DNA of 30,300 nucleotides from a virus, in the UHGV virus genome UHGV-1280366; one strand, written 5' to 3'. Both the position numbers and the translations under genes were made by a program. Below the pieces are notes generated by a model. That model was not told the DNA's origin. It ran no database searches and saw only the letters and a program-made list of their open reading frames with translations. Shown here one piece after another: positions 1 to 20,748 of the stretch (positions are counted from its first letter, which is position 1; every line of letters begins with the position of its first letter).

Positions 1-287
1 CATGATACCAACTCAGGTTAAAACAATGCTTAACAGTGGAGCAACATCAAGAGATTCAGCAGGGAAGAAACAGGTTCGTGTCTTCAATGCAAAATAACTT
101 CCCGCTGGACCCGAACGACAAAAACAATCAGGCAGCGGTAGACCGTTATTTCGCGCAGGATATCGCGCCTTCGTTTTCCATATCTGATCCGCAGAGCATC
201 AATACACTGGTCACCGTCACAACTAAAAGCGGCATGATACCAACTCAGGTTAAAACAATGCTTAACAGTGGAGCAACATCAAGAGAT
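1..287. repeat. 55-bp exact direct repeat, copies at 1-55 and 233-287 (offset 232 bp)
   Basis: Identical strings catgataccaactcaggttaaaacaatgcttaacagtggagcaacatcaagagat at both positions; flanks diverge (tcagc vs cctgc). Copy 1 may extend upstream of the window. Confidence 0.9.
2..97 (+). CDS. 3' end of an upstream virion gene, truncated by the window start; reads ...MIPTQVKTMLNSGATSRD... then stops at TAA 95-97
   Basis: Open frame 2 from the window edge to TAA at 95-97; shares the 18-aa peptide encoded by the 55-bp repeat with the next ORF. Partial, function unknown. Confidence 0.3.
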   Translation: MIPTQVKTMLNSGATSRDSAGKKQVRVFNAK

Positions 288-1223
288 CCTGCGCTGGTTG
301 TCCCGATGGCAAAATTCTACGGTCAGTTATTCGATAATAATCCGGCGGCAGCGGCAACACTTGATAAAAGTACGATGGCATTTTACGGCAAGGTTTACGA
401 TTATTCCCGCGCTGGCGTGCCGGAGGATAAGGCTGTTGATATGGCTTACAGCCAGGTGTTCCAACAGGATGACCGAATGAAACAGATGCTTTCCACTGCC
501 ATGCGAGACAAAAAATATGTCGCGGCGAGGGCAACTGCTGCACAAAATAACGCCAGCAGTCTGACTTCCTTTGGTTCGTGGTCTCCGGATATTACCGATC
601 CAGGAAAATCAAATGCGGCCTATCAGCGAGATTACCAGACAATTTACGATGCTAACTTTGTACAGACAGGTGGCGATGCAGAACAGGCTGAGAAAATGAC
701 CAATGCCATGATCAGAACCACCTGGGGAGTTTCTACGGTTAATGGCAAAGCAGAGGTTATGAAGTATGCACCTGAGGCATTGTACGGAGTAAATAATGGT
801 GCTGGTAACTGGATACAGGGGCAGTGGGAGCAGGAAAAACGCGAGCTTAAATCAAAATCCTTTGGCGGTCCTCGCAGTGATACGGACTTAATACTTGTTT
901 CTGATGGCCTTACGGCAAGGGATAGGAGTTATGCTGTTATGGTTTTACAGCCTGACGCAAACGGAGCGATAGAACCGAGAAATTATATTGGAGAAAATGG
1001 TCTCCCTGTTCGTTTCAAGCCGGATCAACTGACATCTCCAATGTACAGGCAAACCATTCAGTTACAGCAACAGCGTGTTGATGAGGCTAGAGTGCGGAGA
1101 GAAGGCAATCCGCTGCCGCAGTTCAGCAATAAAGATGGATATACTCCTCCAGATCTGACCAAACCATTCGGTTATGGTTCAGCCAATTACCTTCCGAGCA
1201 ATATATACGCAGGGGGCAAATAA
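36..1223 (+). CDS. virion protein, putative DNA-ejection/internal protein (395 aa); start uncertain (ATG 36 or internal ATG 234)
   Basis: Long ORF with ATG start; stop overlaps the next start (TAATG at 1221-1225), indicating translational coupling within the structural operon upstream of the tailspike. Function inferred from position only. Confidence 0.55.
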   Translation: MEQHQEIQQGRNRFVSSMQNNFPLDPNDKNNQAAVDRYFAQDIAPSFSISDPQSINTLVTVTTKSGMIPTQVKTMLNSGATSRDPALVVPMAKFYGQLFDNNPAAAATLDKSTMAFYGKVYDYSRAGVPEDKAVDMAYSQVFQQDDRMKQMLSTAMRDKKYVAARATAAQNNASSLTSFGSWSPDITDPGKSNAAYQRDYQTIYDANFVQTGGDAEQAEKMTNAMIRTTWGVSTVNGKAEVMKYAPEALYGVNNGAGNWIQGQWEQEKRELKSKSFGGPRSDTDLILVSDGLTARDRSYAVMVLQPDANGAIEPRNYIGENGLPVRFKPDQLTSPMYRQTIQLQQQRVDEARVRREGNPLPQFSNKDGYTPPDLTKPFGYGSANYLPSNIYAGGK

Positions 1224-4200
1224 TGCCGATATATGAACAGAATCCTAAAGAGTTGCTTGGCGAGGATATTCAGCAAATAGCAGCACCTGATGACAGTAAT
1301 TTCTATATGGAAACACCTTCTTTGCTTTCTGCTGTGAACCCATTTACCAGTGATCAACGCGTTCAAAGGTCTAGACAAGCAGCATTTCGTATAGATAACA
1401 CGCTGGGTAGCTTTATTGCCAGTGCTCCTTTCAGTCAGTTTGACAGGGTTGAAGGATATAACCCATTTGATAACGATGCAGCAGATATTAAAGGCTATGA
1501 AGATTTTGCAGATTCGTTTATCAACTCCGGTTCGCATGAAGAAACAATGGCAATTAAACATCGAATCGATAAGCAAAGAACAGATAGAGAATATCTATCT
1601 GAAATGGGTGGTGCTGGTACTATTTCAAGCTTAGCAATGGGAATGATAGACCCGGTTAATGTGGCTGCAATGTTCATCCCTGTAGGGGCGGTAGCGCGTG
1701 GAGGAAGTATTGCTGAGACGGCAGGGCGTTTTGCCCTAGCGAATGCTGCTGGTGGGGGAGTATCAGAAGCCGCATTACAGGCCACTCAGGAAGCTCGCTC
1801 ACCGATGGAGAGCGTATCGAACGTTGTTGTTGATGCTCTCGTTGGTGGGATCCTTGGTGCTGGTGCACAGCTACTTGCTGGACCTAGCGCGCGCGAGGCA
1901 GTGGTTAACTCAGTAGGTAATCATTTGCGAGGTATGGATTCTCCTCAAAGCATTGGTGCAGCTCAGGTTTTCAATACCACACTCGATCAGGAACAGCTCG
2001 CTGGACTTGGACTTGCTAACAAAACGTTGAGTGTCACTCCTGCTGGCCGCTTGGCTCAATCACCATCTCTTGTCTCCCGTCAGATTAACCAGCAGCTTGC
2101 CGAAAATAACTATTTCTTCGCCAAAAATGATGAGGGGTTGGCTACGTTTACGGCAGTCGAGACTAAGATTAAGCAATACGACGCCATGCTTTATAAGCAG
2201 ATGGAAGCCACTCGTGATGCTTACCAGCAGTACAGCAAATCTGTTAGCGCCCGCGGCGTGAAGAGGATGAGCTTTATTGATTTCAATGAAGCTGTTGGCA
2301 TGGCTATGCGCCGTGGTGATCAGAGTGATATTCCTGAGGTTTCACAAGCAGCCGCCAGAATCCGCCCCATTTTCGAGACCACAAAAGCCCGTATGCAGGA
2401 ACTGGGGATCCTTCCTGAGGATATCGATGTCGTGACGGCGAAAAGTTATCTTCCCCGCATTTATAAGTTCGATAAGATACTTTCCGACCGCACTGAATTC
2501 AGAGGGCGAATTGCCAACTGGATACAAGGGATTAGTGCCAAAGGTGCTGACAAAGCAGGTCAGCGAATTGAAAGGATAAATTCATTGCTAAAAACTGCAG
2601 AGGAATCGGCACCGCGCGCTGATGCTCTCGCTAGTGAAATCGCTGAAGCGGAGAAATGGTCTGGTAAAAAAATTCTACTTATGGAAGAACTGGATAAACG
2701 AAATAAGCTTATATCTCAGGAGACTGACACACAGGCGCGTCTTACAAGAATAGAAAAAGAGTTGGCCGAGACTTCATCAGAAAAACTTCAGGCAAGAATG
2801 ATGAAAGAAAGCTCTGACCTTAAAACACGCCTTGATGATATAGCGCAGGCAAAGAGTGAGCTTCCTGTCTATCAGCGCCATATGGAGTTGCTGGATAATC
2901 CACGGAAATATCGTTCTGAGCTTCGCCGACTGCAAAAACGGGCAAATTCAACCACAAGGCTGAATGCAAGCCGCGAACGAGCACTGAAGCAGATGGAGCC
3001 TCTATCCCGAGAGGAAGCAGAGGACGCTGCTGACGAGATCGTGAATAAAATAATAGGCGCACCTTCCGGGCTTGTACCAGCCGATATTATCCCAGAGAGA
3101 CTCGTTGGTCGGGCTGGTTTCACTAAAAGCAGAACGCTGCTTATTCCTGATGAGCGTATAGAAGATTTTCTTGAATCAGATGTTAACTACATCATGGAAA
3201 GTTATCTCCGGCAGGTGGCACCAGAAATTGAGCTGACTGCGCAGTTTGGCCGTAAAGATATGGGGGAGCAAATCCGTCAGGTTAGTGAGGAATATACCCG
3301 GCTAATAAAAGAGGCTAAAACACCTAAACGACGTGCAGTTCTTGAGAAGCAACGGGAGGCTGATATTAGGGATATTACGGCTATGCGTGATCGACTGCTT
3401 GGTACTTACGGTGCACCTCAAGATCCACGCAGTTTCTTTGTTCGTGCCGGGCGAGTTGCTAGGAATATTAACTTCCTCCGTTTGCTTGGTGGAATGACTG
3501 TCTCCGCTGCAACTGATCTGATGCGACCGATGATGCAGCATGGCCTGAGAAAATCTCTCGGACCAATGGTAAGCATGCTTAAAAATATGGACTCAGTGAA
3601 AATTGCAACCAGGGATTTGCGAGAAATGGCCGTTGGGCTTGATTATGTCCTGTCTACGCGTACAAAGGCTATAGCGGATCTTACTGACCCCTATAGCCGG
3701 AGAAGCGCCGCTGAGCGAGGTCTGAACTGGATGACGCAGAAATTCGGTAACTGGACGCTGATGAATCAGTGGAACAGCGCACTTAAATCATGGTCCGGGA
3801 TGATAGTGCAGTCGAGGATACTTGACGCGGCTCGCCAAGTTTCTGCTGGTGGCACGCTCTCCAAAAGTGAAATGCGGAAGATGGCACAGGTCGGCATCAA
3901 TGAAGATGTTCTGCGCCGAATCGGGGAGCAATTCGGGAAGCACGGAGAGGATATGGACGGGCTGTTAACCGGGCATAGTCATCTGTGGGATGACCGTTTC
4001 GCTAGAGAGATTTTCCAGTCTGCAGTGCTGAAAGATGTAGACTCAGTGATTGTAACGCCTGGCGTAGGTGATACACCGCTGTTTTTTAGTAAAGAAGGCT
4101 GGAAGATGATCACGCAGTTCAAAACGTTTATCTTCGCACAGCATAACAGGGTGCTAGTATCTGGTATCCAGCAGGGCGATGCTGCATTCTATCTTGGTGC

Positions 4201-4612
4201 GCTTGGCACGATTGCGCTTGGCTCAATGGTCTATATGATGAAACAGAAGTTAAGCGGTCGCGATATCGACTACAGCTGGAATAACCTTGTGAAAGAGGGG
4301 ATCGACCGGGGCGGAATGCTTGGCTGGCTCTCTGAGCCGCTGAATACCGTTGAGAACATAAGCGGCGGTAGGTTTGGTCTTGGCGCGATGTTTGGTGCGC
4401 CTCCGGTATCAAGGTTTCAGAGTCGTAATGCTATTGGTGCTTTACTTGGTCCTACCTTTGATCTTGGCGGTGATGCCGCGACGGTTGCGAATGGTGTACT
4501 TAACGGAGAATTTGACAGCCAGCAAACCCACGCGGTCCGTAAAATGCTACCTTTTCAGAACCTGTGGGCGATATCACCGTTACTAAATAAAGTTGAAGAG
4601 CAGATGAAATAG
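1223..4612 (+). CDS. large virion protein (1129 aa), putative DNA-ejection/internal virion protein
   Basis: 3.4-kb uninterrupted ORF; Gly/Ala-rich hydrophobic segment near residues 130-230, charged coiled-coil-like central region, hydrophobic C-terminal part. Last large gene of the structural module before the accessory island and tailspike. Family not recognised. Confidence 0.75.
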   Translation: MPIYEQNPKELLGEDIQQIAAPDDSNFYMETPSLLSAVNPFTSDQRVQRSRQAAFRIDNTLGSFIASAPFSQFDRVEGYNPFDNDAADIKGYEDFADSFINSGSHEETMAIKHRIDKQRTDREYLSEMGGAGTISSLAMGMIDPVNVAAMFIPVGAVARGGSIAETAGRFALANAAGGGVSEAALQATQEARSPMESVSNVVVDALVGGILGAGAQLLAGPSAREAVVNSVGNHLRGMDSPQSIGAAQVFNTTLDQEQLAGLGLANKTLSVTPAGRLAQSPSLVSRQINQQLAENNYFFAKNDEGLATFTAVETKIKQYDAMLYKQMEATRDAYQQYSKSVSARGVKRMSFIDFNEAVGMAMRRGDQSDIPEVSQAAARIRPIFETTKARMQELGILPEDIDVVTAKSYLPRIYKFDKILSDRTEFRGRIANWIQGISAKGADKAGQRIERINSLLKTAEESAPRADALASEIAEAEKWSGKKILLMEELDKRNKLISQETDTQARLTRIEKELAETSSEKLQARMMKESSDLKTRLDDIAQAKSELPVYQRHMELLDNPRKYRSELRRLQKRANSTTRLNASRERALKQMEPLSREEAEDAADEIVNKIIGAPSGLVPADIIPERLVGRAGFTKSRTLLIPDERIEDFLESDVNYIMESYLRQVAPEIELTAQFGRKDMGEQIRQVSEEYTRLIKEAKTPKRRAVLEKQREADIRDITAMRDRLLGTYGAPQDPRSFFVRAGRVARNINFLRLLGGMTVSAATDLMRPMMQHGLRKSLGPMVSMLKNMDSVKIATRDLREMAVGLDYVLSTRTKAIADLTDPYSRRSAAERGLNWMTQKFGNWTLMNQWNSALKSWSGMIVQSRILDAARQVSAGGTLSKSEMRKMAQVGINEDVLRRIGEQFGKHGEDMDGLLTGHSHLWDDRFAREIFQSAVLKDVDSVIVTPGVGDTPLFFSKEGWKMITQFKTFIFAQHNRVLVSGIQQGDAAFYLGALGTIALGSMVYMMKQKLSGRDIDYSWNNLVKEGIDRGGMLGWLSEPLNTVENISGGRFGLGAMFGAPPVSRFQSRNAIGALLGPTFDLGGDAATVANGVLNGEFDSQQTHAVRKMLPFQNLWAISPLLNKVEEQMK

Positions 4613-5053
4613 CTATTCACAATTAGTGATGGCGTATGTATCAAATATATTGCCATCACTAAATACATACCTATACTCAATCTCTCCGCCAAGGTGAATA
4701 AATGCTTTCATTTGCCTGTTGGAGCAAATGCTCGATTTTGAATAATTTCGCATTACACTCTTTAATTTATTTTCTAAGGTTACATCACCATTATAAACTT
4801 TTGATAAATAGCTGTTGTTGTAATTAAGATGCGCTACAACTAAGAGTTTGTTTAGTATTGCATTTATTGAAACAATAGACATATTATCATTCAATTTTAT
4901 GGGAAGTGACTTTCCTGCTTCTGATGCAATTTTGTTTGCATGTGCACACATATCCTCATTTATTAAATTCTTAAAACATATGTCGTTTGCAAACGAAAAA
5001 ATTGGTAGGATAAACAAAACGGTAGCTGTAATAGCGTGCATCGGCTTAATCAT
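4613..5053 (-). CDS. small hypothetical protein with predicted N-terminal signal peptide (MHAITATVLFILPIFSFA); moron-like
   Basis: ORF in a visibly AT-rich stretch (about 4620-5050) unlike the flanking phage genes; hydrophobic N-terminus ending in A-x-A-like site. Alternative start at 5041. Diverges from the next gene with almost no spacer. Confidence 0.45.
   Translation of the reverse strand: MIKPMHAITATVLFILPIFSFANDICFKNLINEDMCAHANKIASEAGKSLPIKLNDNMSIVSINAILNKLLVVAHLNYNNSYLSKVYNGDVTLENKLKSVMRNYSKSSICSNRQMKAFIHLGGEIEYRYVFSDGNIFDTYAITNCE
4623..4662. repeat. 11-bp perfect inverted repeat (ttagtgatggc / gccatcactaa) with 18-nt spacer
   Basis: Seen directly, at the convergent junction of the 1129-aa gene and the minus-strand gene 4613-5053; no flanking T-tract. 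Confidence 0.6.
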
Positions 5054-5065
5054 TAGGTGACCTTT

Positions 5066-5515
5066 ATGTTCAAGAAGATGATCAACAGATTAATCGGTGG
5101 TAAGGAGGTTAGCAATAAAATTCAACCTCTTATCTTTAAGGATAACTTTTCAGCTTTTGAGTATGCGTGTAAGTATCTTGACACAAGCCTTTCAGCCAAT
5201 AAACCAATGCCAGCCATCATCATACCTGGTCCCAGTGGGGAACAGCCAGTTTTGCTGGATTCTGGAAGACAAAGGGCAATGCTGAAGGTGTGCTCAGCTG
5301 ATGGTGGATTTTTTGTTATTGCCGATTCATCTTACAGCAAAGGACCAAAGCTGAGGATTGGTGATCTTGTTGCTTGGTTGCCTGTGAGTTATGCCGAAGA
5401 ATTAACGGATAAAATAGAAGATCCTCGCTCCGCTATGGTTGGCTTTATATTGGGAACCATTCATCCTGAACTAACATCTACTGGCTGGAAGGGTAAAGAA
5501 AGATTTCGCAAGTAG
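5066..5515 (+). CDS. hypothetical protein (about 149 aa)
   Basis: ORF; track start 5057 is GTG, so ATG 5066 was chosen, preceded by AGGTGA 6 nt upstream; followed by an intrinsic terminator. Confidence 0.5.
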   Translation: MFKKMINRLIGGKEVSNKIQPLIFKDNFSAFEYACKYLDTSLSANKPMPAIIIPGPSGEQPVLLDSGRQRAMLKVCSADGGFFVIADSSYSKGPKLRIGDLVAWLPVSYAEELTDKIEDPRSAMVGFILGTIHPELTSTGWKGKERFRK

Positions 5516-5529
5516 CGTGACATGTCACA

Positions 5530-5553
5530 GGCCGCTTTCGCGGCCTTGTTTTT
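5530..5553 (+). terminator. rho-independent terminator (GGCCGC-tttc-GCGGCC then TTGTTTTT)
   Basis: Perfect 6-bp GC stem, 4-nt loop, T-rich tail immediately after the stop of 5066-5515. Confidence 0.6.
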
Positions 5554-5593
5554 AACGAATGCCACCGCCGCCCGGGTGGGAATCCGCAGACAC

Positions 5594-5614
5594 AAAAAAG
5601 CCCGCGCCGCGGGC
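5594..5614 (-). terminator. rho-independent terminator for minus-strand gene 5620-6252
   Basis: On the minus strand GCCCGCG-g-CGCGGGC followed by TTTTTT (A-run 5594-5599 on the + strand). Confidence 0.55.
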
Positions 5615-5619
5615 TTCTA

Positions 5620-6252
5620 TTAATGCAGTTTATCTTTGCTTATAACCAGTAGTCTGTGGGTATGCACATCTTTATCACTGCCCCAACAGAAATCAGCCCA
5701 CTGGCTATAGAAATCATCCCATGATGTCATGAAGCTAAGAGGTCTATCTTCTTCAGAGCCATCTGAAACGTATACATTATATCCCGGGGTGTTTATAGCC
5801 CAAGAAATCATTCTTTCCCAGAATCTTCTCCCATCGATTGTTTGTTGCTCATCAGATACAACGATCGCATATTGCTCTAGGAAGAACTGAAAAAAAATCT
5901 GAGGCAAACCATGAACAGCACGGTCATGAATAACATTAGGCGTACGCCATACCATGATCTGCGTACATGTTCTTTTGGCTTCGACGATATCTTCCCGAAA
6001 GATTAACTTAACCGCATACACCGTTTCTGGAGTATCGCTGGTAGTAATCATTCTGTAATGATCGCCATTACAAGATTTTACAAGGCGATAACCATAAGGT
6101 GTTGTGAATCCCGGAAGAACGAAATCAACCACACCTTTCGCTAAGTAGCTTTCGGTGTGACTAGTGTTCTTCTCAGACATGTTCAGTTTTCTATCGAAAT
6201 CTGCTTCTGGGATAATGTATGGCATCGCTTTTCTTGTTGTATTTGTTTTCAT
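5620..6252 (-). CDS. hypothetical protein (210 aa), accessory island
   Basis: ORF with ATG at 6252 and GGAGG 6 nt upstream on the minus strand; bracketed by a terminator and an upstream TTACC-N5-GGTAA palindrome. No family recognised. Confidence 0.6.
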   Translation of the reverse strand: MKTNTTRKAMPYIIPEADFDRKLNMSEKNTSHTESYLAKGVVDFVLPGFTTPYGYRLVKSCNGDHYRMITTSDTPETVYAVKLIFREDIVEAKRTCTQIMVWRTPNVIHDRAVHGLPQIFFQFFLEQYAIVVSDEQQTIDGRRFWERMISWAINTPGYNVYVSDGSEEDRPLSFMTSWDDFYSQWADFCWGSDKDVHTHRLLVISKDKLH

Positions 6253-6311
6253 TTCGTCCTCCCATGTTTGGCTACAGGACGCGTTTTGAAGGGAAGATTA
6301 AAAACGCTTTC

Positions 6312-6326
6312 TTACCCGTAAGGTAA
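6312..6326. promoter_or_regulatory. palindromic motif TTACC-cgtaa-GGTAA(TAT), copy 1 of 3
   Basis: Seen directly, about 60 bp upstream of minus-strand gene 5620-6252; same motif at 7372-7386 and 7754-7768. Confidence 0.35.
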
Positions 6327-6391
6327 TATTACGCGAATCTACATCACATCGCCAATGATTATTTTAAAGGCACATCCCTGTGCCGCCGCCG

Positions 6392-7102
6392 TCAGAAGAA
6401 CCCTGCCTTGTCGTTGATGTACTCCGCGTGCGTCTGGATATCACGCAGGCATTTGCTCACACCGACGATGTAGCAGAACATGGTGGTCAGCTCCGCCGCC
6501 GCGCCCGATACGTCGTGCCCGTCTTCCTGTAACTGGTTCAGCAGATTCATCAGCAGTGAGTTTTCCGTCAGGCCGAGAACACCAGACGGAGAATGAATCA
6601 GGCTGCGGTAGCCGGGCTTCAGTGGGGCGCTGTAGGTTTTGTTCTCTATCTTCATTGCCTGCATCACTGCTGATGCTGTGGCGTTGGCTACCTGGTCGGC
6701 AACCATCTTTATGCGTTCTTCCTGCGGGAGCGAGTTTTTAATGTAACTTCCTGTGCGGCGGATCTGAGGAAGAACCTCACCTGTAACCCATTTACGAAAG
6801 CGGTAGGGGATAGTGCCTGGTGTTACTGCATCGCGGCAGCGGAGGATCAGTGTGTAGAGGCCTGACTCGGAGATGATGTTGATCTCTTTTACTCGGCTGT
6901 CAAAAATTGCACGATGTTCATGCCCTATGTTGAACATAGACCTTTCATCATCATCCAGTTTTTCAAGTGATTGGGTGACGTTTTGGATACGCAGCGCACT
7001 ACAAACGTCTTGGGCTACAAACCATGGTTGGCCATCGATAATGATGGAACGGATAGGGTTAACAGATTCAAATTTGAAGATGGCAGTTTGAGCATTAGCC
7101 AT
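6392..7102 (-). CDS. Bro-N / KilA-N family antirepressor-like protein
   Basis: N-terminal region (FKFESVNPIRSIIIDGQPWFVAQDVCSALRI...) resembles Bro-N DNA-binding domains of phage antirepressors; start moved to MANAQ (ATG 7102) with GGAGATAA upstream. C-terminal domain is paralogous to the product of 7418-7675. Confidence 0.7.
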   Translation of the reverse strand: MANAQTAIFKFESVNPIRSIIIDGQPWFVAQDVCSALRIQNVTQSLEKLDDDERSMFNIGHEHRAIFDSRVKEINIISESGLYTLILRCRDAVTPGTIPYRFRKWVTGEVLPQIRRTGSYIKNSLPQEERIKMVADQVANATASAVMQAMKIENKTYSAPLKPGYRSLIHSPSGVLGLTENSLLMNLLNQLQEDGHDVSGAAAELTTMFCYIVGVSKCLRDIQTHAEYINDKAGFF

Positions 7103-7258
7103 GGTGGTTATCTCCACTTAGTGATTTTAATCACCACCGCAACGCCAATTACTGGTGGTGAACTGGACAAGGTTGGCGTACCGGCCTAAGTGGTACCGGC
7201 GTCCTTTCGGACCCCTGCCCAGCCCACCATAATTCGGATATAGCTGTGCTTAACGCAT

Positions 7259-7280
7259 AAAAAAACCACGTCTGGCGTGG
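7259..7280 (-). terminator. rho-independent terminator downstream of minus-strand gene 7418-7675
   Basis: CCACG-ccaga-CGTGG hairpin followed on the minus strand by seven T (A-run 7259-7265 on +). Confidence 0.55.
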
Positions 7281-7371
7281 TATGCGCCACTTAGTAACTC
7301 GGGACGCCAATCCCGGCACTGGATTTTGCCAGTGCCCGATTACTATGGCACAAGAGGAGTGCAATGTAAAT

Positions 7372-7386
7372 TTACCGCAAAGGTAA
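7372..7386. promoter_or_regulatory. palindromic motif TTACC-gcaaa-GGTAA(ATAT), copy 2 of 3
   Basis: Seen directly; between the stop of 7418-7675 and the terminator at 7259-7280. Confidence 0.3.
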
Positions 7387-7417
7387 ATATAAGCACTCCA
7401 TTTGGTAATTGCAAACC

Positions 7418-7675
7418 TTATCTGGTTTGTTTTCGTAATTGTTCGGCACAATAGTCGAGATGTGTTTGCAGATCCTGCATAGACATCTGTGAGCTGGTGA
7501 CGTAGTTAATCAGTGCAGTCAGTTCGGCAAGTGGGCCATCGACATTAAATCCATCCTTATCGAGATCCCGGAGTAATTTCATCAAGTGCGATCCCTCCAC
7601 CAGTGACCTGACGCCTCCCGGCGTGTGAATCCTTTCGGTAAATCCGTCTTCCAGTGGATAGTGATACTGCTGCAT
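7418..7675 (-). CDS. short antirepressor C-terminal-domain paralog (about 85 aa), candidate SOS-regulated antirepressor
   Basis: Product aligns with the C-terminal 65 residues of the 6392-7102 protein (shared IH.P.GV..L.E.S.LM.LL..L..DG..V.G..AELT...Y...D.QTH). ATG 7675 chosen for GGAGAAG about 8 nt upstream; alternative ATG 7690. Confidence 0.6.
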   Translation of the reverse strand: MQQYHYPLEDGFTERIHTPGGVRSLVEGSHLMKLLRDLDKDGFNVDGPLAELTALINYVTSSQMSMQDLQTHLDYCAEQLRKQTR

Positions 7676-7694
7676 CTTAATCTTCTCCATGCAA

Positions 7695-7714
7695 TAACTG
7701 TATGTTTATACAGT
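7695..7714. promoter_or_regulatory. LexA (SOS) box, aaCTGTATGTTTATACAGta
   Basis: Matches CTGT-N8-ACAG with an AT-rich spacer (consensus TACTGTATATATATACAGTA); 5-20 bp upstream of the start codons of 7418-7675; overlaps a TATAAA -10-like hexamer on the minus strand. Confidence 0.6.
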
Positions 7715-7753
7715 AGCAAATAATTTGTTTGCTATCCAGCACGTTTTGCAAAT

Positions 7754-7768
7754 TACCTGAAAGGTAAT
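7754..7768. promoter_or_regulatory. palindromic motif TTACC-tgaaa-GGTAA(TAT), copy 3 of 3
   Basis: Seen directly, between the LexA-box gene and the tailspike gene (about 100 bp upstream of ATG 7872). Confidence 0.35.
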
Positions 7769-7871
7769 ATCTATTCATATTCACAGTCTTTCTATCCATA
7801 TGTGGTTTTTCAGGTAATAGAATAACCAGATATGCGGCGCAACGGGTGCTGCGACTATCTGGAGATTTAAC

Positions 7872-9980
7872 ATGACGGTCTCAACCAAAGTTGACCACAA
7901 CGAATACACAGGTAACGGCGTTACGACATCGTTTCCGTATACTTTTCGAATTTTCAGAAAATCAGACCTGGTTGTTCAGGTGTCTGACCTGAACGGGAAC
8001 GTAACAGAATTGGTTCTGGATACCGGTTATACGGTAATTGGGGTGGGAGCTTATAGTGGTGGTACAGTGGTTCTTCCGTCGCCGCTTGCTGCTGGCTGGC
8101 GAATCACTATAGAGCGTGTGCTTGATGTGGTGCAGGAGACTGACCTTCGAAATCAGGGGAATTTTTTTCCAGAAGTTCATGAGGATGCATTTGACTACCT
8201 GACGATGCTGATTCAGCAGTCTTTTTCTGGTCTATCTCTTGCACTCAGAAAGCCATCACGTTTATCAAATTATTATGATGCTCGTGATAACAGAATCCAA
8301 AACTTAGCAAGCCCAATTCTCCCGAACGATGGTGTAAACCGTAATTTTGTAGAAAACCTTTTTATTGATAAAAGCGCATCTGCTTCTGCATTGCGCTCTT
8401 TGCTGGAAAGCGCAGCTGGGGCTGGAATAATTGGTACATTGCAGGGATTAACCGTTCAGTCAGTTTTAGATAATGTAAAAATCCCACTGACGTCATTCGT
8501 GTTTTCTATTCCTGATGATTTTGCTAATGCAGATTCTTTAGCAGAATATCTTGAAAATAGATGCTATACCGGCACGCAAGTAATAGTACATGTCTCAGCA
8601 GGCACTCATAATTGGAATACTCTAAATAAGATTTTTGGGAAAGAGTGGGGTTTTGGCCGACTTAAATTTGTTGGTGAAGGAATGGATTTGACAATTATTC
8701 AGTTTCTTAAACAGGACGGAATTTATGCTGAAGCAGGTGAGTGTTATGGTCATGCGCCACAGTTTCCCGTGAGTGGTGGTGATATAATACCAATATTTAG
8801 TAATTTAACTATATCAGGAATTGACAGAGATTCAGGAATTGATGATCCATATCTTGATTCAATGGGGATAAGGGCGTTTGACGGCGGTGTTGTTGTACTT
8901 GATGAAAGCGTAAGAATAACTCAGTTTTCCAGGTGTGGAGTTATGGCTGAGAGGCATGGTATAGCTTTTGTTCCTGGGGTTAAAGTCGATACTACAGGTT
9001 CTGATTGTTTCGCTGCCTCTGAAGGTGGTTATATCTATTGTCCAGACTCTACAGCAAGCAACCCGAAAGGTCATTGCTACATCGCATATTCTGGAGGGCA
9101 GCTTTATATGCCTAACTGTATTGCTCAGAATGCAGAGACACACAACTCGTCAAATGTAGGGGGATCTGGTCTTGTGTTGACCGGAAGCAGTTACGCTTAC
9201 GCTATTAATCTTCAAACTAAAAACAATGCTCAACGTGGAATTAGTGTGGCGTTAGGGTCTTTTCTACGAGCTGACGGGTTTACTGAGAGTGAAAATATTC
9301 TACCTGTGACTGTTTCGCAGGGTTCCACGTTGGTTTCTCCAAATTGCACAATAAACAAACCAGATGCTCTTGCGCTTTTAATTGAGAAAGGAGGAAAGGC
9401 ATTTTTCCAGGTAGCAACAACTGATAAGTTTACTATGTATGGTAGAGCAACAGTACAGTCAATGGGGGTTCTTCATGCACCAGATGGCGACATAACGAAC
9501 AGTTCAGGCAATTCAATATCTGCAATTAACTCAACAGTTGACGTTGACAGAACAACTTTCCATGGTTCTCCTGCTGTAGCTATCTATGCCATGGATGGAG
9601 CGATGGTTAAATGTAGCAATGGAGAATCTCAGACAACTACAGGGACAACAATTATTGCTCAAAATGCAAAGGTTATCGCTGATGGCTTTAAGGTAAAAGG
9701 AAATCCATCAATAGGGTTTAGAGCAACTATGTCTGGAATAATTTCTGCGAAAAACACATCAGTTATCAAGGCCGGTCAATATGGTTACTTTTCTGAAAAT
9801 ATGGGGGCATTTATTGATGCTACAGGTGCTACAGTAGGAGATGCTTTCTCTGGTTTTAAAGCAATAAACGGAGCCAGAATTAATGCTACGCAATCAGATG
9901 CTACAGGATCATATACAGGAGGTGCTTATAGCCCATCAGTAAATTTAGCAGATGAAAAACTAACAATAATAATAAAGTAA
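7872..9980 (+). CDS. tailspike / tail fibre protein (702 aa)
   Basis: N-terminus (NEYTGNGVTTSFPYTFRIF...DLVVQV) carries the conserved podovirus tail-fibre/tailspike N-terminal adaptor motif; Gly/Ser/Thr-rich C-terminal 500 aa consistent with a beta-rich receptor-binding domain; GGAG RBS; last late gene before attP. Confidence 0.8.
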   Translation: MTVSTKVDHNEYTGNGVTTSFPYTFRIFRKSDLVVQVSDLNGNVTELVLDTGYTVIGVGAYSGGTVVLPSPLAAGWRITIERVLDVVQETDLRNQGNFFPEVHEDAFDYLTMLIQQSFSGLSLALRKPSRLSNYYDARDNRIQNLASPILPNDGVNRNFVENLFIDKSASASALRSLLESAAGAGIIGTLQGLTVQSVLDNVKIPLTSFVFSIPDDFANADSLAEYLENRCYTGTQVIVHVSAGTHNWNTLNKIFGKEWGFGRLKFVGEGMDLTIIQFLKQDGIYAEAGECYGHAPQFPVSGGDIIPIFSNLTISGIDRDSGIDDPYLDSMGIRAFDGGVVVLDESVRITQFSRCGVMAERHGIAFVPGVKVDTTGSDCFAASEGGYIYCPDSTASNPKGHCYIAYSGGQLYMPNCIAQNAETHNSSNVGGSGLVLTGSSYAYAINLQTKNNAQRGISVALGSFLRADGFTESENILPVTVSQGSTLVSPNCTINKPDALALLIEKGGKAFFQVATTDKFTMYGRATVQSMGVLHAPDGDITNSSGNSISAINSTVDVDRTTFHGSPAVAIYAMDGAMVKCSNGESQTTTGTTIIAQNAKVIADGFKVKGNPSIGFRATMSGIISAKNTSVIKAGQYGYFSENMGAFIDATGATVGDAFSGFKAINGARINATQSDATGSYTGGAYSPSVNLADEKLTIIIK

Positions 9981-10077
9981 GCAATATGCTATAGTTCATG
10001 ACTTATTAATGATAACTATATGCACAAAGCTTTGCACTTGATTGCAATGCTTTGTGCCATTCTATAGTTAAGGTGGA
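9981..10077. other. candidate attP region between convergent tailspike and int genes
   Basis: 97-bp AT-rich spacer with ctatagtt direct repeats (9989-9996, 10061-10068) and a 9-bp inverted repeat GCACAAAGC...GCTTTGTGC; position by analogy to lambda/P22 attP adjacent to the int 3' end. Core not identifiable without attB. Confidence 0.35.
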
Positions 10078-11236
10078 TCACTCCACCTTTTCATCAAGCC
10101 AGTCCGCCCACCACTGCATCATTTCTCTGCGCTTATCTAGATACTGAGCATGGTTGTAAATACCGCGCACAGATCCGCCGTTGGCATGTGCCAGTTGCAC
10201 TTCAATAGCGTCAGCAGGCCATTCATGCTCGTTCATAATCGTGCTGAATTCATGCCTGAATCCGTGACCGCTTTCCAGACCTTCATAGCCGATTTGTTTG
10301 ATCACAAGTAGCACCGCGTTCTCGCAGATTGGCTTCTTCTTATCGTTGCGTCCGGCAAAAACAAACTCTGATACTGGTTTAGTGATGGAGCTTAGCGTAG
10401 TGAGAAGTTCAACCACCTGGTCTGACATCGGGACCACATGAATTTTGCGTCCCTTCATCACACTGGCGTCGATGGTGATAATCCTGTTTTCAAAATCGAC
10501 GTTCTTCCATTGCATGGAGCGAAGCTCTTTCGTTCTTAGGGCTGTGTAGCGTAAAACTTTGGTCGCAATGAGCGATACGATACTTCCTGAAAATGTTGCC
10601 AGTGCTTTGTTGAATGCCGGGATCTGGTCTGCAGGAAGAAACGGGAAGTTCTTCTTGCGGTATCCCTTCATGGCGTCAGCAAGGTCAGGTGCCGGGTTAT
10701 ATTTAGCCCTACCAGTGACAATAGCGTAACGGAAAACCTCGCCGCATCTTCTGCGGGCTTTGTTGGCTCGCTCCATTGCACCGCGATCTTCAAATCTGCG
10801 GATTACTTCCAGCAGTTGCATCGGCTCAATATCCAGAATCTCGAGACCGCCGATGATGGGTAAAATGTCGTCATCAAACATTTTGGCAAGTTCAGTCGCA
10901 TACCCTACAGACCAGACTTGCTTCTTGTGCTCGTACCATTCCTTGTAAATGGCGCTAAAGGAATTGTTGTTAGACGAAGCCTTTTTCGCTTTTACCGGAT
11001 CTATGCCAACCGAGATGTCTTTCCTCGCAGTCCATGCTCTATCCCTTGCCTCCTGCAAAGTCATAAGCGGATATTTTCCGACAGTCAGGATTTTCTCCTT
11101 ACCGTCAATCTTGTAGCGAAGCTGCCATACCTTTTTCCCGGATACAGGGACATAAAGATACAGGCCATTACCATCGAGAAGGCGGTATGGTTTTTCTTTC
11201 GGCTTTGCTGCTTCAATCTGCTTAACGGTTAGCATG
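10078..11236 (-). CDS. int: tyrosine integrase (P4-like, N-terminal arm-binding domain)
   Basis: N-terminus MLTVKQIEAAKPKEKPYRLLDGNGLYLYV matches the arm-binding domain of P4-family integrases; C-terminal region has catalytic-domain features (HGFRH, tyrosine near the C-terminus). Track start 11271 is GTG; ATG 11236 chosen. Confidence 0.9.
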
Positions 11237-18077: not shown

Positions 18078-18210
18078 TTTTTGGGACTCCTGGCTGATTA
18101 AGTATGTCGATAAGGCGTTTCCACCCGTTACGTAATTTACGGGTGATTCGTTCAAGTAAAGATTCGGAAGGGCAGCCAGCAACAGGCCACCCTGCAATGG
18201 CATATTGCAT
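18070..18210 (-). CDS. cIII: CIII protease-inhibitor (stabilises CII)
   Basis: MQYAIAGWPVAGCPSESLLERITRKLRNGWKRLIDILNQPGVPKNG is near-identical to lambda CIII as recalled; AAGGAG RBS. Confidence 0.8.
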   Translation of the reverse strand: MQYAIAGWPVAGCPSESLLERITRKLRNGWKRLIDILNQPGVPKNG

Positions 18211-18270
18211 GGTGTGCTCCTTATTTATACATAACGAAAACGCCTCGAGTGAAGCGTTATTGGTATGCAT

Positions 18271-19429: not shown

Positions 19430-20080
19430 TTATGGAAGGTTTGCTAGTTTTGCATCGACAACTACGCCGATGATTTTGCAGTTTCCGTTGATCTCGATCA
19501 TCGGATATTGTGGGTTAAGTGGTTTTAGAAACTTCCTGCCTGCATCAATAACTAACTTCTTGAAAGTTGCCTCGTTTTCTCCTTCGAGCTTTGCAACTAC
19601 CAGTTTCCCGTTACGCGGCTCTACTTCAGGATCGACAAGTATTATCATTCCTTCAGGGATACTGAGACCGGCCGGAGCCGTCATTGAGTCTCCCTTCACG
19701 TCCAACCAAAACGAATCTTCTGAACAGTCTACGGTTGTATCGTACCAGTTATCTATTGCACGCTTATGATATGGTTCTACAGCTTCCATCCAGCATCCTG
19801 CGCTCACCCAGCTAATCAGAGGGAATGACCCTCTTGGATCATGCCTACTGTGATAGGCAATGTTTGAAAGACTTTCCTCTCCTTTCATCAGATAGTCAGG
19901 GGAACACTTCAACGCATTAGCCAGGGCGAGAAGATTCTCTCCATTTGGCTCTGTCTCAGAGCGTTCCCACTGAGATATGGCAACATTAGACACGCCGACC
20001 ATCTTTCCAAGTGCGGCCTGCCTGATCTTGAGTTCTTTTCTCCGAGCGCGAATGCGCTCTCCCATCAATTGAGTTTTCAT
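19430..20080 (-). CDS. c2: c2/CI repressor (HTH plus LexA-like S24 autopeptidase domain)
   Basis: Protein is near-identical to P22 c2 as recalled (MKTQLMGERIRARR...VVDAKLANLP); Ala-Gly cleavage site and Ser/Lys peptidase domain. Confidence 0.95.
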   Translation of the reverse strand: MKTQLMGERIRARRKELKIRQAALGKMVGVSNVAISQWERSETEPNGENLLALANALKCSPDYLMKGEESLSNIAYHSRHDPRGSFPLISWVSAGCWMEAVEPYHKRAIDNWYDTTVDCSEDSFWLDVKGDSMTAPAGLSIPEGMIILVDPEVEPRNGKLVVAKLEGENEATFKKLVIDAGRKFLKPLNPQYPMIEINGNCKIIGVVVDAKLANLP

Positions 20081-20150
20081 AGTTAAGACATCTTAAATAA
20101 ACTTGACTTAAGATTCCTTTAGTGGATAATTTAAGTATTCTTTAATTTCG
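20081..20150. promoter_or_regulatory. OR operator region with pR (-35 TTGACT 20103-20108, -10 GATAAT 20125-20130); divergent pRM expected
   Basis: Three P22-type operator palindromes (e.g. AGTTAAGACATCTTAAAT, AATTTAAGTATTCTTTAATT) between c2 and cro; sigma-70 hexamers with 16-bp spacing. Confidence 0.65.
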
Positions 20151-20160
20151 GAGCGAGTCT

Positions 20161-20346
20161 ATGTACAAGAAAGATGTTATCGACCACTTCGGAACCCAGC
20201 GTGCTGTAGCTAAAGCGTTAGGCATTAGCGACGCAGCAGTCTCTCAGTGGAAGGAAGTCATCCCAGAGAAAGACGCCTATCGACTGGAAGTCGTTACAGC
20301 TGGCGCCCTGAAGTATCAAGAAAGCGCTTACCGCAAAGCGGCATAA
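20161..20346 (+). CDS. cro: Cro repressor
   Basis: MYKKDVIDHFGTQRAVAKALGISDAAVSQWKEVIPEKDAYRLE... matches P22 Cro as recalled; GGAG RBS. Confidence 0.9.
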   Translation: MYKKDVIDHFGTQRAVAKALGISDAAVSQWKEVIPEKDAYRLEVVTAGALKYQESAYRKAA

Positions 20347-20351
20347 GCAAA

Positions 20352-20397
20352 TTGCTCTTTAACAGTCATGGTCCTCATTCCCGCCGAAATGCGGGAA
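20352..20397 (+). promoter_or_regulatory. nutR (boxA TGCTCTTTAACA plus boxB hairpin TCCCGCCGAAATGCGGGA)
   Basis: Immediately downstream of the cro stop; same boxB as nutL. Confidence 0.7.
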
Positions 20398-20454
20398 TAC
20401 AACGCGCATAAGTTGATGCGCATAACTTCTTATTTGTTAAGGAAATACTTACAT

Positions 20455-20748
20455 ATGGTTCGTGCAAACAAACGCAACGAGGCTCTAAGAATCGAGAGTG
20501 CGTTGCTTAACAAAATCGCAATGCTTGGAACTGAGAAGACAGCGGAAGCTGTGGGAGTTGATAAGTCGCAGATCAGCAGGTGGAAGAGGGATTGGATTCC
20601 AAAGTTCTCAATGCTGCTTGCTGTTCTTGAATGGGGCGTCGTTGACGACGATATGGCTCGATTGGCACGACAAGTTGCTTCGATTCTCACCAATAAAAAA
20701 CGCCCGGCGGCAACCGAGCGTTCTGAACAAATCCAGATGGAGTTCTGA
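20455..20748 (+). CDS. cII: CII transcriptional activator
   Basis: [97 protein letters not shown] is essentially lambda CII as recalled; the track ORF from 20368 is an upstream extension across nutR. Confidence 0.9.

Follow-up and report, generated by a model that had tools for sequence, protein, structure and literature searches.

A pair of related antirepressor genes with a LexA box and an isrK/C4 RNA cassette in the virus genome UHGV-1280366

In the virus genome UHGV-1280366, a stretch of 30,300 nucleotides referred to here as the window, two neighbouring genes on the minus strand encode proteins of 236 and 85 amino acids, a Bro-N protein and a small antirepressor, Ant. A reading made from the letters alone (the sequence-only reading) had described them as paralogous antirepressor-type genes, the short product being a stand-alone version of the C-terminal domain of the long one, and the coordinates it gave for both open reading frames (ORFs) were correct, the strand being minus in each case. 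The paralogy was borne out by BLASTP, which aligned residues 155-228 of the long protein without gaps to residues 2-75 of the short one (31 identities in 74 positions, 42%, E=1e-19), and the same alignment identifies the short product as the free-standing form of the C-terminal domain. The Smith-Waterman score of the two proteins (161) was far above that of 2000 shuffles (26.8 ± 4.3, maximum 61; z=31), and the shared region corresponds to the last ~80 residues of the long protein. The long gene starts at ATG 7102 behind the Shine-Dalgarno (SD) sequence GGAG at 7112-7115, and the short gene at ATG 7675 with GGAG at 7685-7688; a further in-frame ATG at 7690, upstream of the short-gene start, has no SD and is unused in the annotation of Salmonella phage SPC32H. 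The pair consists of related phage antirepressors explained by known systems and is no new kind of element.

Residues 2-84 of the short protein matched a single PDB entry, 5D50 chain E 'Anti-repressor protein' (phmmer, E=4e-47), and tblastn gave 88% identity to ant of the Salmonella phages SPC32H and SPC32N and 84% to gp19 of epsilon15. Its PHROG matches were phrog_450 and phrog_15539, both of unknown function, and the C-terminal part of phrog_1760 (anti-repressor); no Pfam family matched the short protein above threshold, and NCBIfam matched neither the short nor the long protein. The ratio of nonsynonymous to synonymous substitution rates (dN/dS) of ant was ~0.07 in comparison with SPC32H and Tyrion, indicating strong purifying selection. 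By homology, the short gene is an orthologue of SPC32H Ant and in essence a known protein. Kim and Ryu in 2013 (J Virol 87:11775) and Kim et al. in 2016 (PNAS 113:E2480) reportedly found that this Ant is repressed by LexA and that its tetramer breaks up the DNA-binding tetramer of the non-cleavable repressor Rep, and the SPC32H authors are said to have regarded it as a class distinct from the small antirepressors of the Gifsy/186/N15 type; PDB entries 5D50 and 5D4Z belong to this Ant/Rep system. According to PMC9638917, the SPC32H Ant tetramer binds two Rep dimers and the Ant domain oligomerises; the reference for Ant/Rep is listed in PMC7380047.

A LexA box lies 23-38 nt upstream of the ATG of ant and appears to overlap the -10 element of its promoter, as read from aligned sequences (Table 1). 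The box was found at an equal offset in 15 of 17 related loci, including SPC32H, with invariant half-sites and a variable centre, and two Klebsiella phages have ATGT...ACAG in its place. The gene is divergent from the tailspike gene, a position it also occupies in SPC32H, and Salmonella phages of the epsilon15/SPC32H type carry the short gene only.

The long protein combines two domains. Residues 17-112 matched Bro-N (PF02498; E=3.4e-19, 69.7 bits against a cut-off of 25.6), the only Pfam match in this protein, while residues 155-231 matched PDB 5D50_E (E=1.2e-13). The C-terminal domain, here termed AntC, also matched phrog_450 and phrog_15539, and the protein belongs to phrog_130 'anti-repressor Ant' (5.7e-56). 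Both products are of antirepressor type, as the sequence-only reading had proposed. Both domains of the long gene are under purifying selection (dN/dS 0-0.29 for AntC and 0.13-0.40 for Bro-N). A protein identical to the long one was present in 165 blocks of the assembly collection; among the matches listed, it lay in phiV10-like prophages in 8 of 8 cases, adjoining the 85-aa gene and the tailspike gene. Full-length relatives with at least 70% identity were found in Escherichia, Salmonella, Citrobacter, Enterobacter, Atlantibacter and Leclercia; 'BRO-like protein' is one of the names they carry. Its homology to SPC32H Ant suggests that the fused domain targets Rep-type repressors.

The same domain could serve another purpose, namely to form mixed oligomers with the small Ant, in which the Bro-N/AntC protein would not target a repressor and would instead be an anti-antirepressor or an enhancer, comparable to the P1 Ant1/Ant2 complex. 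The shared domain is an oligomerisation domain in the solved Ant (PMC9638917), the two genes are kept as a pair in three host genera, and Klebsiella small Ant and AntC have the central motif DGHDVSGAAAE in common, all of which fit such a role; however, stand-alone genes of AntC type occur without a small Ant neighbour, and proteins of the Bro-N antirepressor class are antirepressors in their own right, as described for its presumed member Gifsy-1 AnrP (PMC4825925). We consider mixed oligomers very unlikely to be the function of the long protein.

The sequence-only reading had further held that a terminator separates the genes and that their upstream sequences differ, with a LexA box against none seen. 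A terminator is present on the minus strand, but it belongs to a gene for isrK small RNA (sRNA). The regulatory signals do differ and the LexA box is that of the short gene; the region before the long gene, read as 'none seen', holds isrK, a C4 RNA and an operator-like palindrome. Rfam searches placed isrK and then a C4 antisense RNA, both on the minus strand, in the ~300-bp gap. To compare the elements we used eight phages (the window, phiV10, ZX5, TL-2011b, EC.W1-9, Tyrion, Kp4865-1 and ST512-KPC3phi13.3). The isrK promoter ends 7 nt before the isrK start and its -10 region is invariant in these eight phages. At a permissive threshold the c4-a1b1 model RF03163, overlapping isrK, scored 44.3 bits against a gathering score of 46.7. 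The minimum free energy fold of C4 (-43.6 kcal/mol) agrees with the structure of the Rfam model. The C4 sites a' and b' are perfectly complementary to the corresponding sites in both isrK and the leader of the long gene over 8 nt (a) and 7 nt (b), and leader site a2 overlaps the SD of the Bro-N gene. Both RNA genes lie upstream of the Bro-N gene in 7 of 7 relatives that have it, and both are absent from SPC32H, which also has no Bro-N gene.

Whole-element RNA duplex energies discriminated poorly from shuffles, and site-by-site complementarity with a cross-phage matrix was used instead; a column-based count of pairs on a MAFFT alignment was not used because gaps mis-registered b2 and a2 of the window. 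Among the eight phages the b sequences fall into three types (GGCGU, GGUCU, GAGAC), as do the a sequences, with four specificity combinations in all, and the types change together in C4, isrK and leader. Pairing of C4 within its own phage is perfect over 7-8 nt at each site, except at site a1 of Tyrion and EC.W1-9, where one G-U wobble leaves only 4 nt of perfect Watson-Crick pairing. In the cross-phage matrix each C4 fits the leaders of its own type best. That the sequences covary in all three elements strongly supports a functional role of the pairings. By their sequence and arrangement, the elements in the gap are a complete predicted translational switch of the P1 immI and Gifsy-1 isrK type for the Bro-N gene. 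The 'a' sequence of the window (CCACUUAG in C4, with CUAAGUGG in isrK and the leader) is unlike that of all 7 relatives examined, which suggests a distinct RNA-level immunity type.

One annotated reading frame overlies the C4 RNA. In ZX5 (vB_EcoP_ZX5) the 37-aa coding sequence of an 'ash family protein' (1779-1892) covers the C4 RNA at 1821-1906. The frame across C4 that ends with TAA at 7108-7110 is closed by TAG at 7186-7188 in the window and its amino-acid sequence is not conserved; thus the ZX5 frame is probably a mis-annotated RNA gene.

Perfect palindromes of the form TTACC-N5-GGTAA occur three times in the 30.3 kb, all of them at the antirepressor locus (Table 1), and shuffles had a mean of 0.54 such sites with one mismatch allowed. 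The half-sites of the palindrome before the isrK promoter are kept around a variable 5-nt centre in 8 of 8 phages. In a 21.7-kb stretch of SPC32H, 7 of 8 copies flank rep or sit in the early region, and the pattern in phiV10 is similar. The palindromes are candidate Rep operators, and if they are, both antirepressor promoters would be wired to Rep. No rep gene accompanies these operator-like sites in the window.

We regard it as likely that the locus is an antirepressor module of an epsilon15/phiV10-like temperate podophage, in which two genes share one repressor-binding domain and are subject to two layers of control. In a lysogen, LexA would occupy the box at the ant promoter, and its removal upon DNA damage would allow Ant to be made. 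The Ant tetramer would then take two dimers of non-cleavable Rep off the operator, as shown for the SPC32H orthologue. C4 would be cut out of read-through transcripts and its a' and b' would pair with a2 and b2 in the leader; pairing at a2 would cover the SD and block translation of the Bro-N gene. The isrK RNA, which starts from a promoter of its own and stops at a leaky terminator, carries a1 and b1 and could be a decoy that titrates C4 or, equivalently, could refold the leader, for which Gifsy-1 IsrK is the precedent. Transcripts from the ant and isrK promoters that end at the isrK terminator would supply such decoys, and read-through would yield C4 and Bro-N mRNA. Once the decoy exceeds C4, a2 and the SD would be freed and the second antirepressor translated, as the covariation and the precedents of Gifsy-1 and P1 lead us to expect. 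This second antirepressor may act on Rep-type repressors via the shared domain, judging from homology. Finally, removal of Rep might cause further de-repression at both promoters via the Rep-operator-like palindromes.

The two control layers are probably connected. There is no terminator between the ant stop codon and isrK, hence SOS-induced ant transcripts should have isrK as their 3' end, which would couple the release of LexA to translation of the second antirepressor. Thus the two genes are probably not independent, and transcript read-through would be the means of their coupling.

Several observations weigh against this picture of a two-gene module directed at Rep. In the single-chain AlphaFold2 model of the long protein, pLDDT (predicted local distance difference test) was 74-85 for Bro-N and below 60 for the linker and the C-terminal helical domain, with values of about 50-60 in the latter; low confidence in the C-terminal domain is nevertheless to be expected of an obligate oligomer. 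A Foldseek search of the PDB with this model gave weak matches to the Bro-N part alone and was uninformative for the low-confidence Ant domain. Furthermore, frameshifts disrupt the Bro-N gene of phiV10 and of the O157 typing phages, and phiv142-3 has a truncated copy, so some phages can do without it. An insert of ~1.1 kb separates ant from isrK in TL-2011b and EC.W1-9, and thus transcriptional coupling is not universal. The case for the palindromes as Rep operators is one of position. Finally, with SPC32H Rep as query the best tblastn match in the window had E=1.3, i.e. there is no homologue; the repressor of the window is of the P22 C2 type, cleavable, with a helix-turn-helix and a Peptidase_S24 domain (PDB 1ADR, E=3e-37), and none of the P22-type operators lies at the ant locus. 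With only a C2-type repressor and no Rep, the module is without a demonstrated target in this sequence. The sequence-only reading had named the c2 repressor as the partner to be examined; this choice did not hold, since the known partner of the domain is SPC32H-type Rep and the c2-type repressor of the window is unrelated to Rep. As for the phiV10 frameshift itself, it splits the Bro-N gene (2512-3191) into p23 (194 aa) and p22 (29 aa), which together span the 236-aa protein.

The module could accordingly be orphaned in this genome, a recombinant with C2 immunity that has kept Rep-directed antirepressors, either without function or acting in trans on co-resident phiV10/epsilon15-like prophages. 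The repressor in question is nearly identical to P22 C2 over its N-terminal 76 aa and is accompanied by a P22-type Cro, CII and P22-type operators, with Rep absent, whereas 35 of 35 phage records with the small Ant also have Rep. In addition, antirepressors that act across prophages are documented for Gifsy and Fels-1 (PMC3121763). The window is composite: positions 51-9727 are 99.7% identical to a phiV10-like prophage (L010), and from ~10023 follow an HK620-type attP-int (intS) and then a lambdoid/P22 early region. A P22-like viral contig of IMG/VR (L024) matches 8644-10161 at 96%; its tailspike has a P22 head-binding domain but the same receptor-binding part as that of the window, and it shares with the window only the C-terminal part of the tailspike gene and the attP junction. 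The hybrid join thus lies within a receptor-binding segment of the tailspike gene, ~1.1 kb long, that both phage types possess; a short-read assembler could fuse two prophages exactly there, and this counts against an orphaned module. None of the complete E. coli genomes and phage records contained the junction, a scan of genome contigs was likewise empty, the exact tailspike protein had no database entry, and the right end of the window has no similarity to the packaging regions of phiV10 or EC.W1-9. The window is therefore either a genuine mosaic recombinant or a misassembly, a join of two prophages of one host. The intact state of both ORFs and of every RNA element speaks against decay. On balance an orphaned module appears somewhat unlikely to us. 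A more far-reaching proposal is that ant mRNA made in the SOS response provides, with its own 3' end, the IsrK decoy which unlocks the second antirepressor, and that this feed-forward circuit has been transplanted into a C2-immunity phage, where its sole use would be as a weapon in trans that induces resident phiV10/epsilon15-like prophages or overcomes their immunity; we consider this combination distinctly unlikely.

The Rep proteins of SPC32H and phiV10 are 46% identical in the N-terminal and 37% in the C-terminal part; the domains are about equally diverged and thus give no clue to the part recognised by Ant.

The sequence-only reading had taken the pair to suggest a domain duplication with regulatory subfunctionalisation, considered here as a recent local duplication of the C-terminal domain. 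The genes are indeed adjacent, paralogous, on the same strand and furnished with unlike upstream signals. We surveyed the domain family by searching 1.84 billion representatives exhaustively with a profile, since the fragment query alone had returned short proteins only. Just 62 clusters carried the Ant domain (E <= 0.001), most of them as stand-alone proteins of 76-130 aa, and in proteins of 150-319 aa the domain stood at the C-terminus behind a Bro-N, AntA, Phage_pRha or ORF6N head; a P22_AR_N-Ant fusion was found in one phiV10-like prophage and in TL-2011b. The ORF6N and P22_AR_N fusions are more remote members of the family. A neighbour-joining tree groups the small Ants from phages of E. 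coli, Salmonella, Enterobacter and Klebsiella in one clade and the Bro-N-fused domains in another, both clades being represented in E. coli, Enterobacter and Klebsiella phages, and the fused-type clade also holds stand-alone 95-aa proteins, AntA fusions and pRha fusions. The two copies are 37-44% identical in every phage examined, whereas orthologues of each copy share 58-100% identity across genera. Moreover, Salmonella relatives lack the entire isrK-C4-Bro-N cassette. The split into clades points to an old divergence and acquisition of the cassette as a module. On this evidence a recent duplication at the locus is improbable and appears largely refuted by the tree; the copies are best explained by domain shuffling, as long known for Bro-N/KilA-N regulators, and not by duplication inside the phage.

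Some further members of the family deserve mention. A third Ant-domain gene, with a P22_AR_N head, is present in some phiV10-like prophages (L013, 12222-13160, minus strand; TL-2011b, 3866-4687, minus strand); its C-terminal domain is ~84% identical to AntC of the window at the protein level in TL-2011b and ~95% at the DNA level in L013, where an Arc-like gene lies nearby. An 84-aa protein (P0014) has an N-terminal half of small-Ant type and a C-terminal half of AntC type, and the small Ants of two Klebsiella phages (L005, L006) bear the AntC-type motif DGHDVSGAAAEL; these may be signs of exchange between the paralogue lineages. Another phiV10-like prophage (L022, 4001-4294) encodes a stand-alone 97-aa protein 98% identical to AntC of the window, at the end of the early-left operon beside int, a position that is Rep-controlled and not LexA-controlled.

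Elsewhere in the window, the interval 4613-6252, which separates the virion genes from the Bro-N gene, holds three ORFs of 146 and 210 aa (both minus strand) and 152 aa (plus strand); their sole matches were PHROGs without a known function (phrog_8772, phrog_1349 and phrog_9944). This slot varies among related prophages and holds a YafO toxin gene in TL-2011b. A lambda cIII thermoregulator element was matched by Rfam at 18165-18223 (minus strand, 88.5 bits).

Table 1. Features of the antirepressor locus and of the immunity region in the window. Positions count from the first nucleotide of the window.
Feature	Position	Strand	Remarks
Bro-N/Ant-domain fusion gene	6392..7102	-	Bro-N ~6767-7054; helical linker of low confidence; Ant-like domain ~6410-6640
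Leader target sites of the long gene	7112..7148	-	b2 UUGGCGU 7142-7148; a2 CUAAGUGG 7114-7121
C4-type antisense RNA	7151..7234	-	Rfam RF01695, 66 bits (gathering score 45), full length
C4 b' ACGCCAA	7173-7179	-	single-stranded
C4 loop a' CCACUUAG	7186-7193	-	hairpin loop
isrK sRNA	7259..7335	-	Rfam RF01394, 67.2 bits (gathering score 50)
isrK terminator, intrinsic	7265..7281	-	sole terminator between the two genes
isrK site a1 CUAAGUGG	7287-7294	-	complementary to C4 a'
isrK site b1 UUGGCGU	7304-7310	-	complementary to C4 b'
isrK promoter, sigma-70-like	7342..7370	-	TTTACA, 17-nt spacer, (TG)CATAGT; start ~7335 (promoter scan)
Small antirepressor gene ant	7418..7675	-	5D50_E match; 88% identity to SPC32H/SPC32N ant; phrog_450
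LexA box CTGT-N8-ACAG	7698..7713		CTGTATGTTTATACAG on the plus strand; sole perfect match in 30.3 kb
Putative ant promoter	-35 TGGATA 7733-7738; -10 TACTGT 7710-7715	-	read from aligned sequences
Palindrome TTACC-N5-GGTAA	6312..6326		downstream of the Bro-N gene; ~60 nt upstream of the 210-aa ORF (5620-6252, minus strand)
Palindrome TTACC-N5-GGTAA	7372..7386		ends 1 nt upstream of the isrK -35 hexamer
Palindrome TTACC-N5-GGTAA	7753..7767		upstream of the ant promoter, in the divergent ant/tailspike intergenic region; conserved in relatives
P22 immC-like genes	19430-20080 (-), 20161-20346 (+), 20368-20748 (+)		C2-type repressor, P22 Cro, CII
P22-type operators TTAAG-N4-CTTAA	19313-19361, 20083-20144		OL and OR

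The locus combines three systems that have already been described, SPC32H Ant/Rep, Gifsy-1 IsrK and P1 c4, and three usually separate literatures thus meet in one place, with the basic picture of antirepressor action unchanged. What may be new lies in the detail: the C-terminal domain of a Bro-N antirepressor is recognised as the SPC32H Ant module, an isrK/C4 switch stands directly behind a LexA-controlled ant gene, and operator-like sites of Rep type accompany both antirepressor promoters. The widespread 'BRO-like protein' thereby gains a concrete and testable function, its C-terminal domain being the module of a solved, repressor-disassembling antirepressor. Furthermore, the isrK-C4 cassette is present in 257 phage records, many of them Shiga toxin (Stx)-converting phages, hence SOS and sRNA inputs at antirepressor genes bear on the induction of prophages and toxin.

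The closest known system is SPC32H Ant/Rep, which the short gene resembles in length, position and LexA box as well as at the 88% identity given above, and to which the C-terminal domain of the long gene is homologous. In contrast to the window, SPC32H has the small gene only, with no isrK/C4/Bro-N cassette, and the window lacks the cognate Rep. The counterpart of the RNA layer is the c4 RNA of phage P1, which blocks the ribosome-binding site preceding ant (PMC12197685). As in the immI region (c4-icd-ant) of P1 and P7, an RNA of the C4 family lies in the leader of an antirepressor gene, with a1/b1 upstream and a2/b2 downstream of it and one site on the ribosome-binding site, and the specificity types vary between phages as in P1/P7 heteroimmunity. 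Unlike immI, the window lacks a conserved coupled ORF of the icd kind, the SD covered by a2 is that of the antirepressor gene itself, a Bro-N/Ant-domain protein takes the place of Ant1/2, and a1/b1 belong to a separately promoted and terminated sRNA.

In the isrK-orf45-anrP locus of Gifsy-1, transcription continues past the isrK terminator and IsrK in trans turns on translation of the antirepressor AnrP (Hershko-Shalev et al. 2016, PMC4825925). The window shares with it an isrK gene with its own promoter and terminator (leaky in Gifsy-1), a structured leader and an antirepressor gene; the processed STnc1160/orf45' RNA corresponds to the C4 element, and the IsrK nucleotides G28 and G31, mutation of which changed anrP translation (PMC4825925), fall in b1. 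It differs from Gifsy-1 in having no intact orf45 with AUGA coupling and in lying directly downstream of a LexA-controlled ant; no Gifsy record was among the best 60 of 1,090 tblastn matches. The LexA-repressed small proteins GfoA/GfhA/GftA of Gifsy, Tum of 186 and the N15 protein also called AntC inactivate a non-cleavable repressor (PMC3121763). The ant gene is like them in logic, being likewise outside the immunity region; a sequence relationship to them was not found, though no search aimed at one was made. Iyer, Koonin and Aravind reportedly described in 2002 phage regulators of the Bro-N/KilA-N type with shuffled C-terminal modules. The long gene conforms to this plan of a Bro-N head with a swappable module, the same Ant module being found behind Bro-N, AntA, pRha, ORF6N and P22_AR_N, and it differs from the generic members in that its C-terminal module is tied to a solved and characterised repressor-binding protein.

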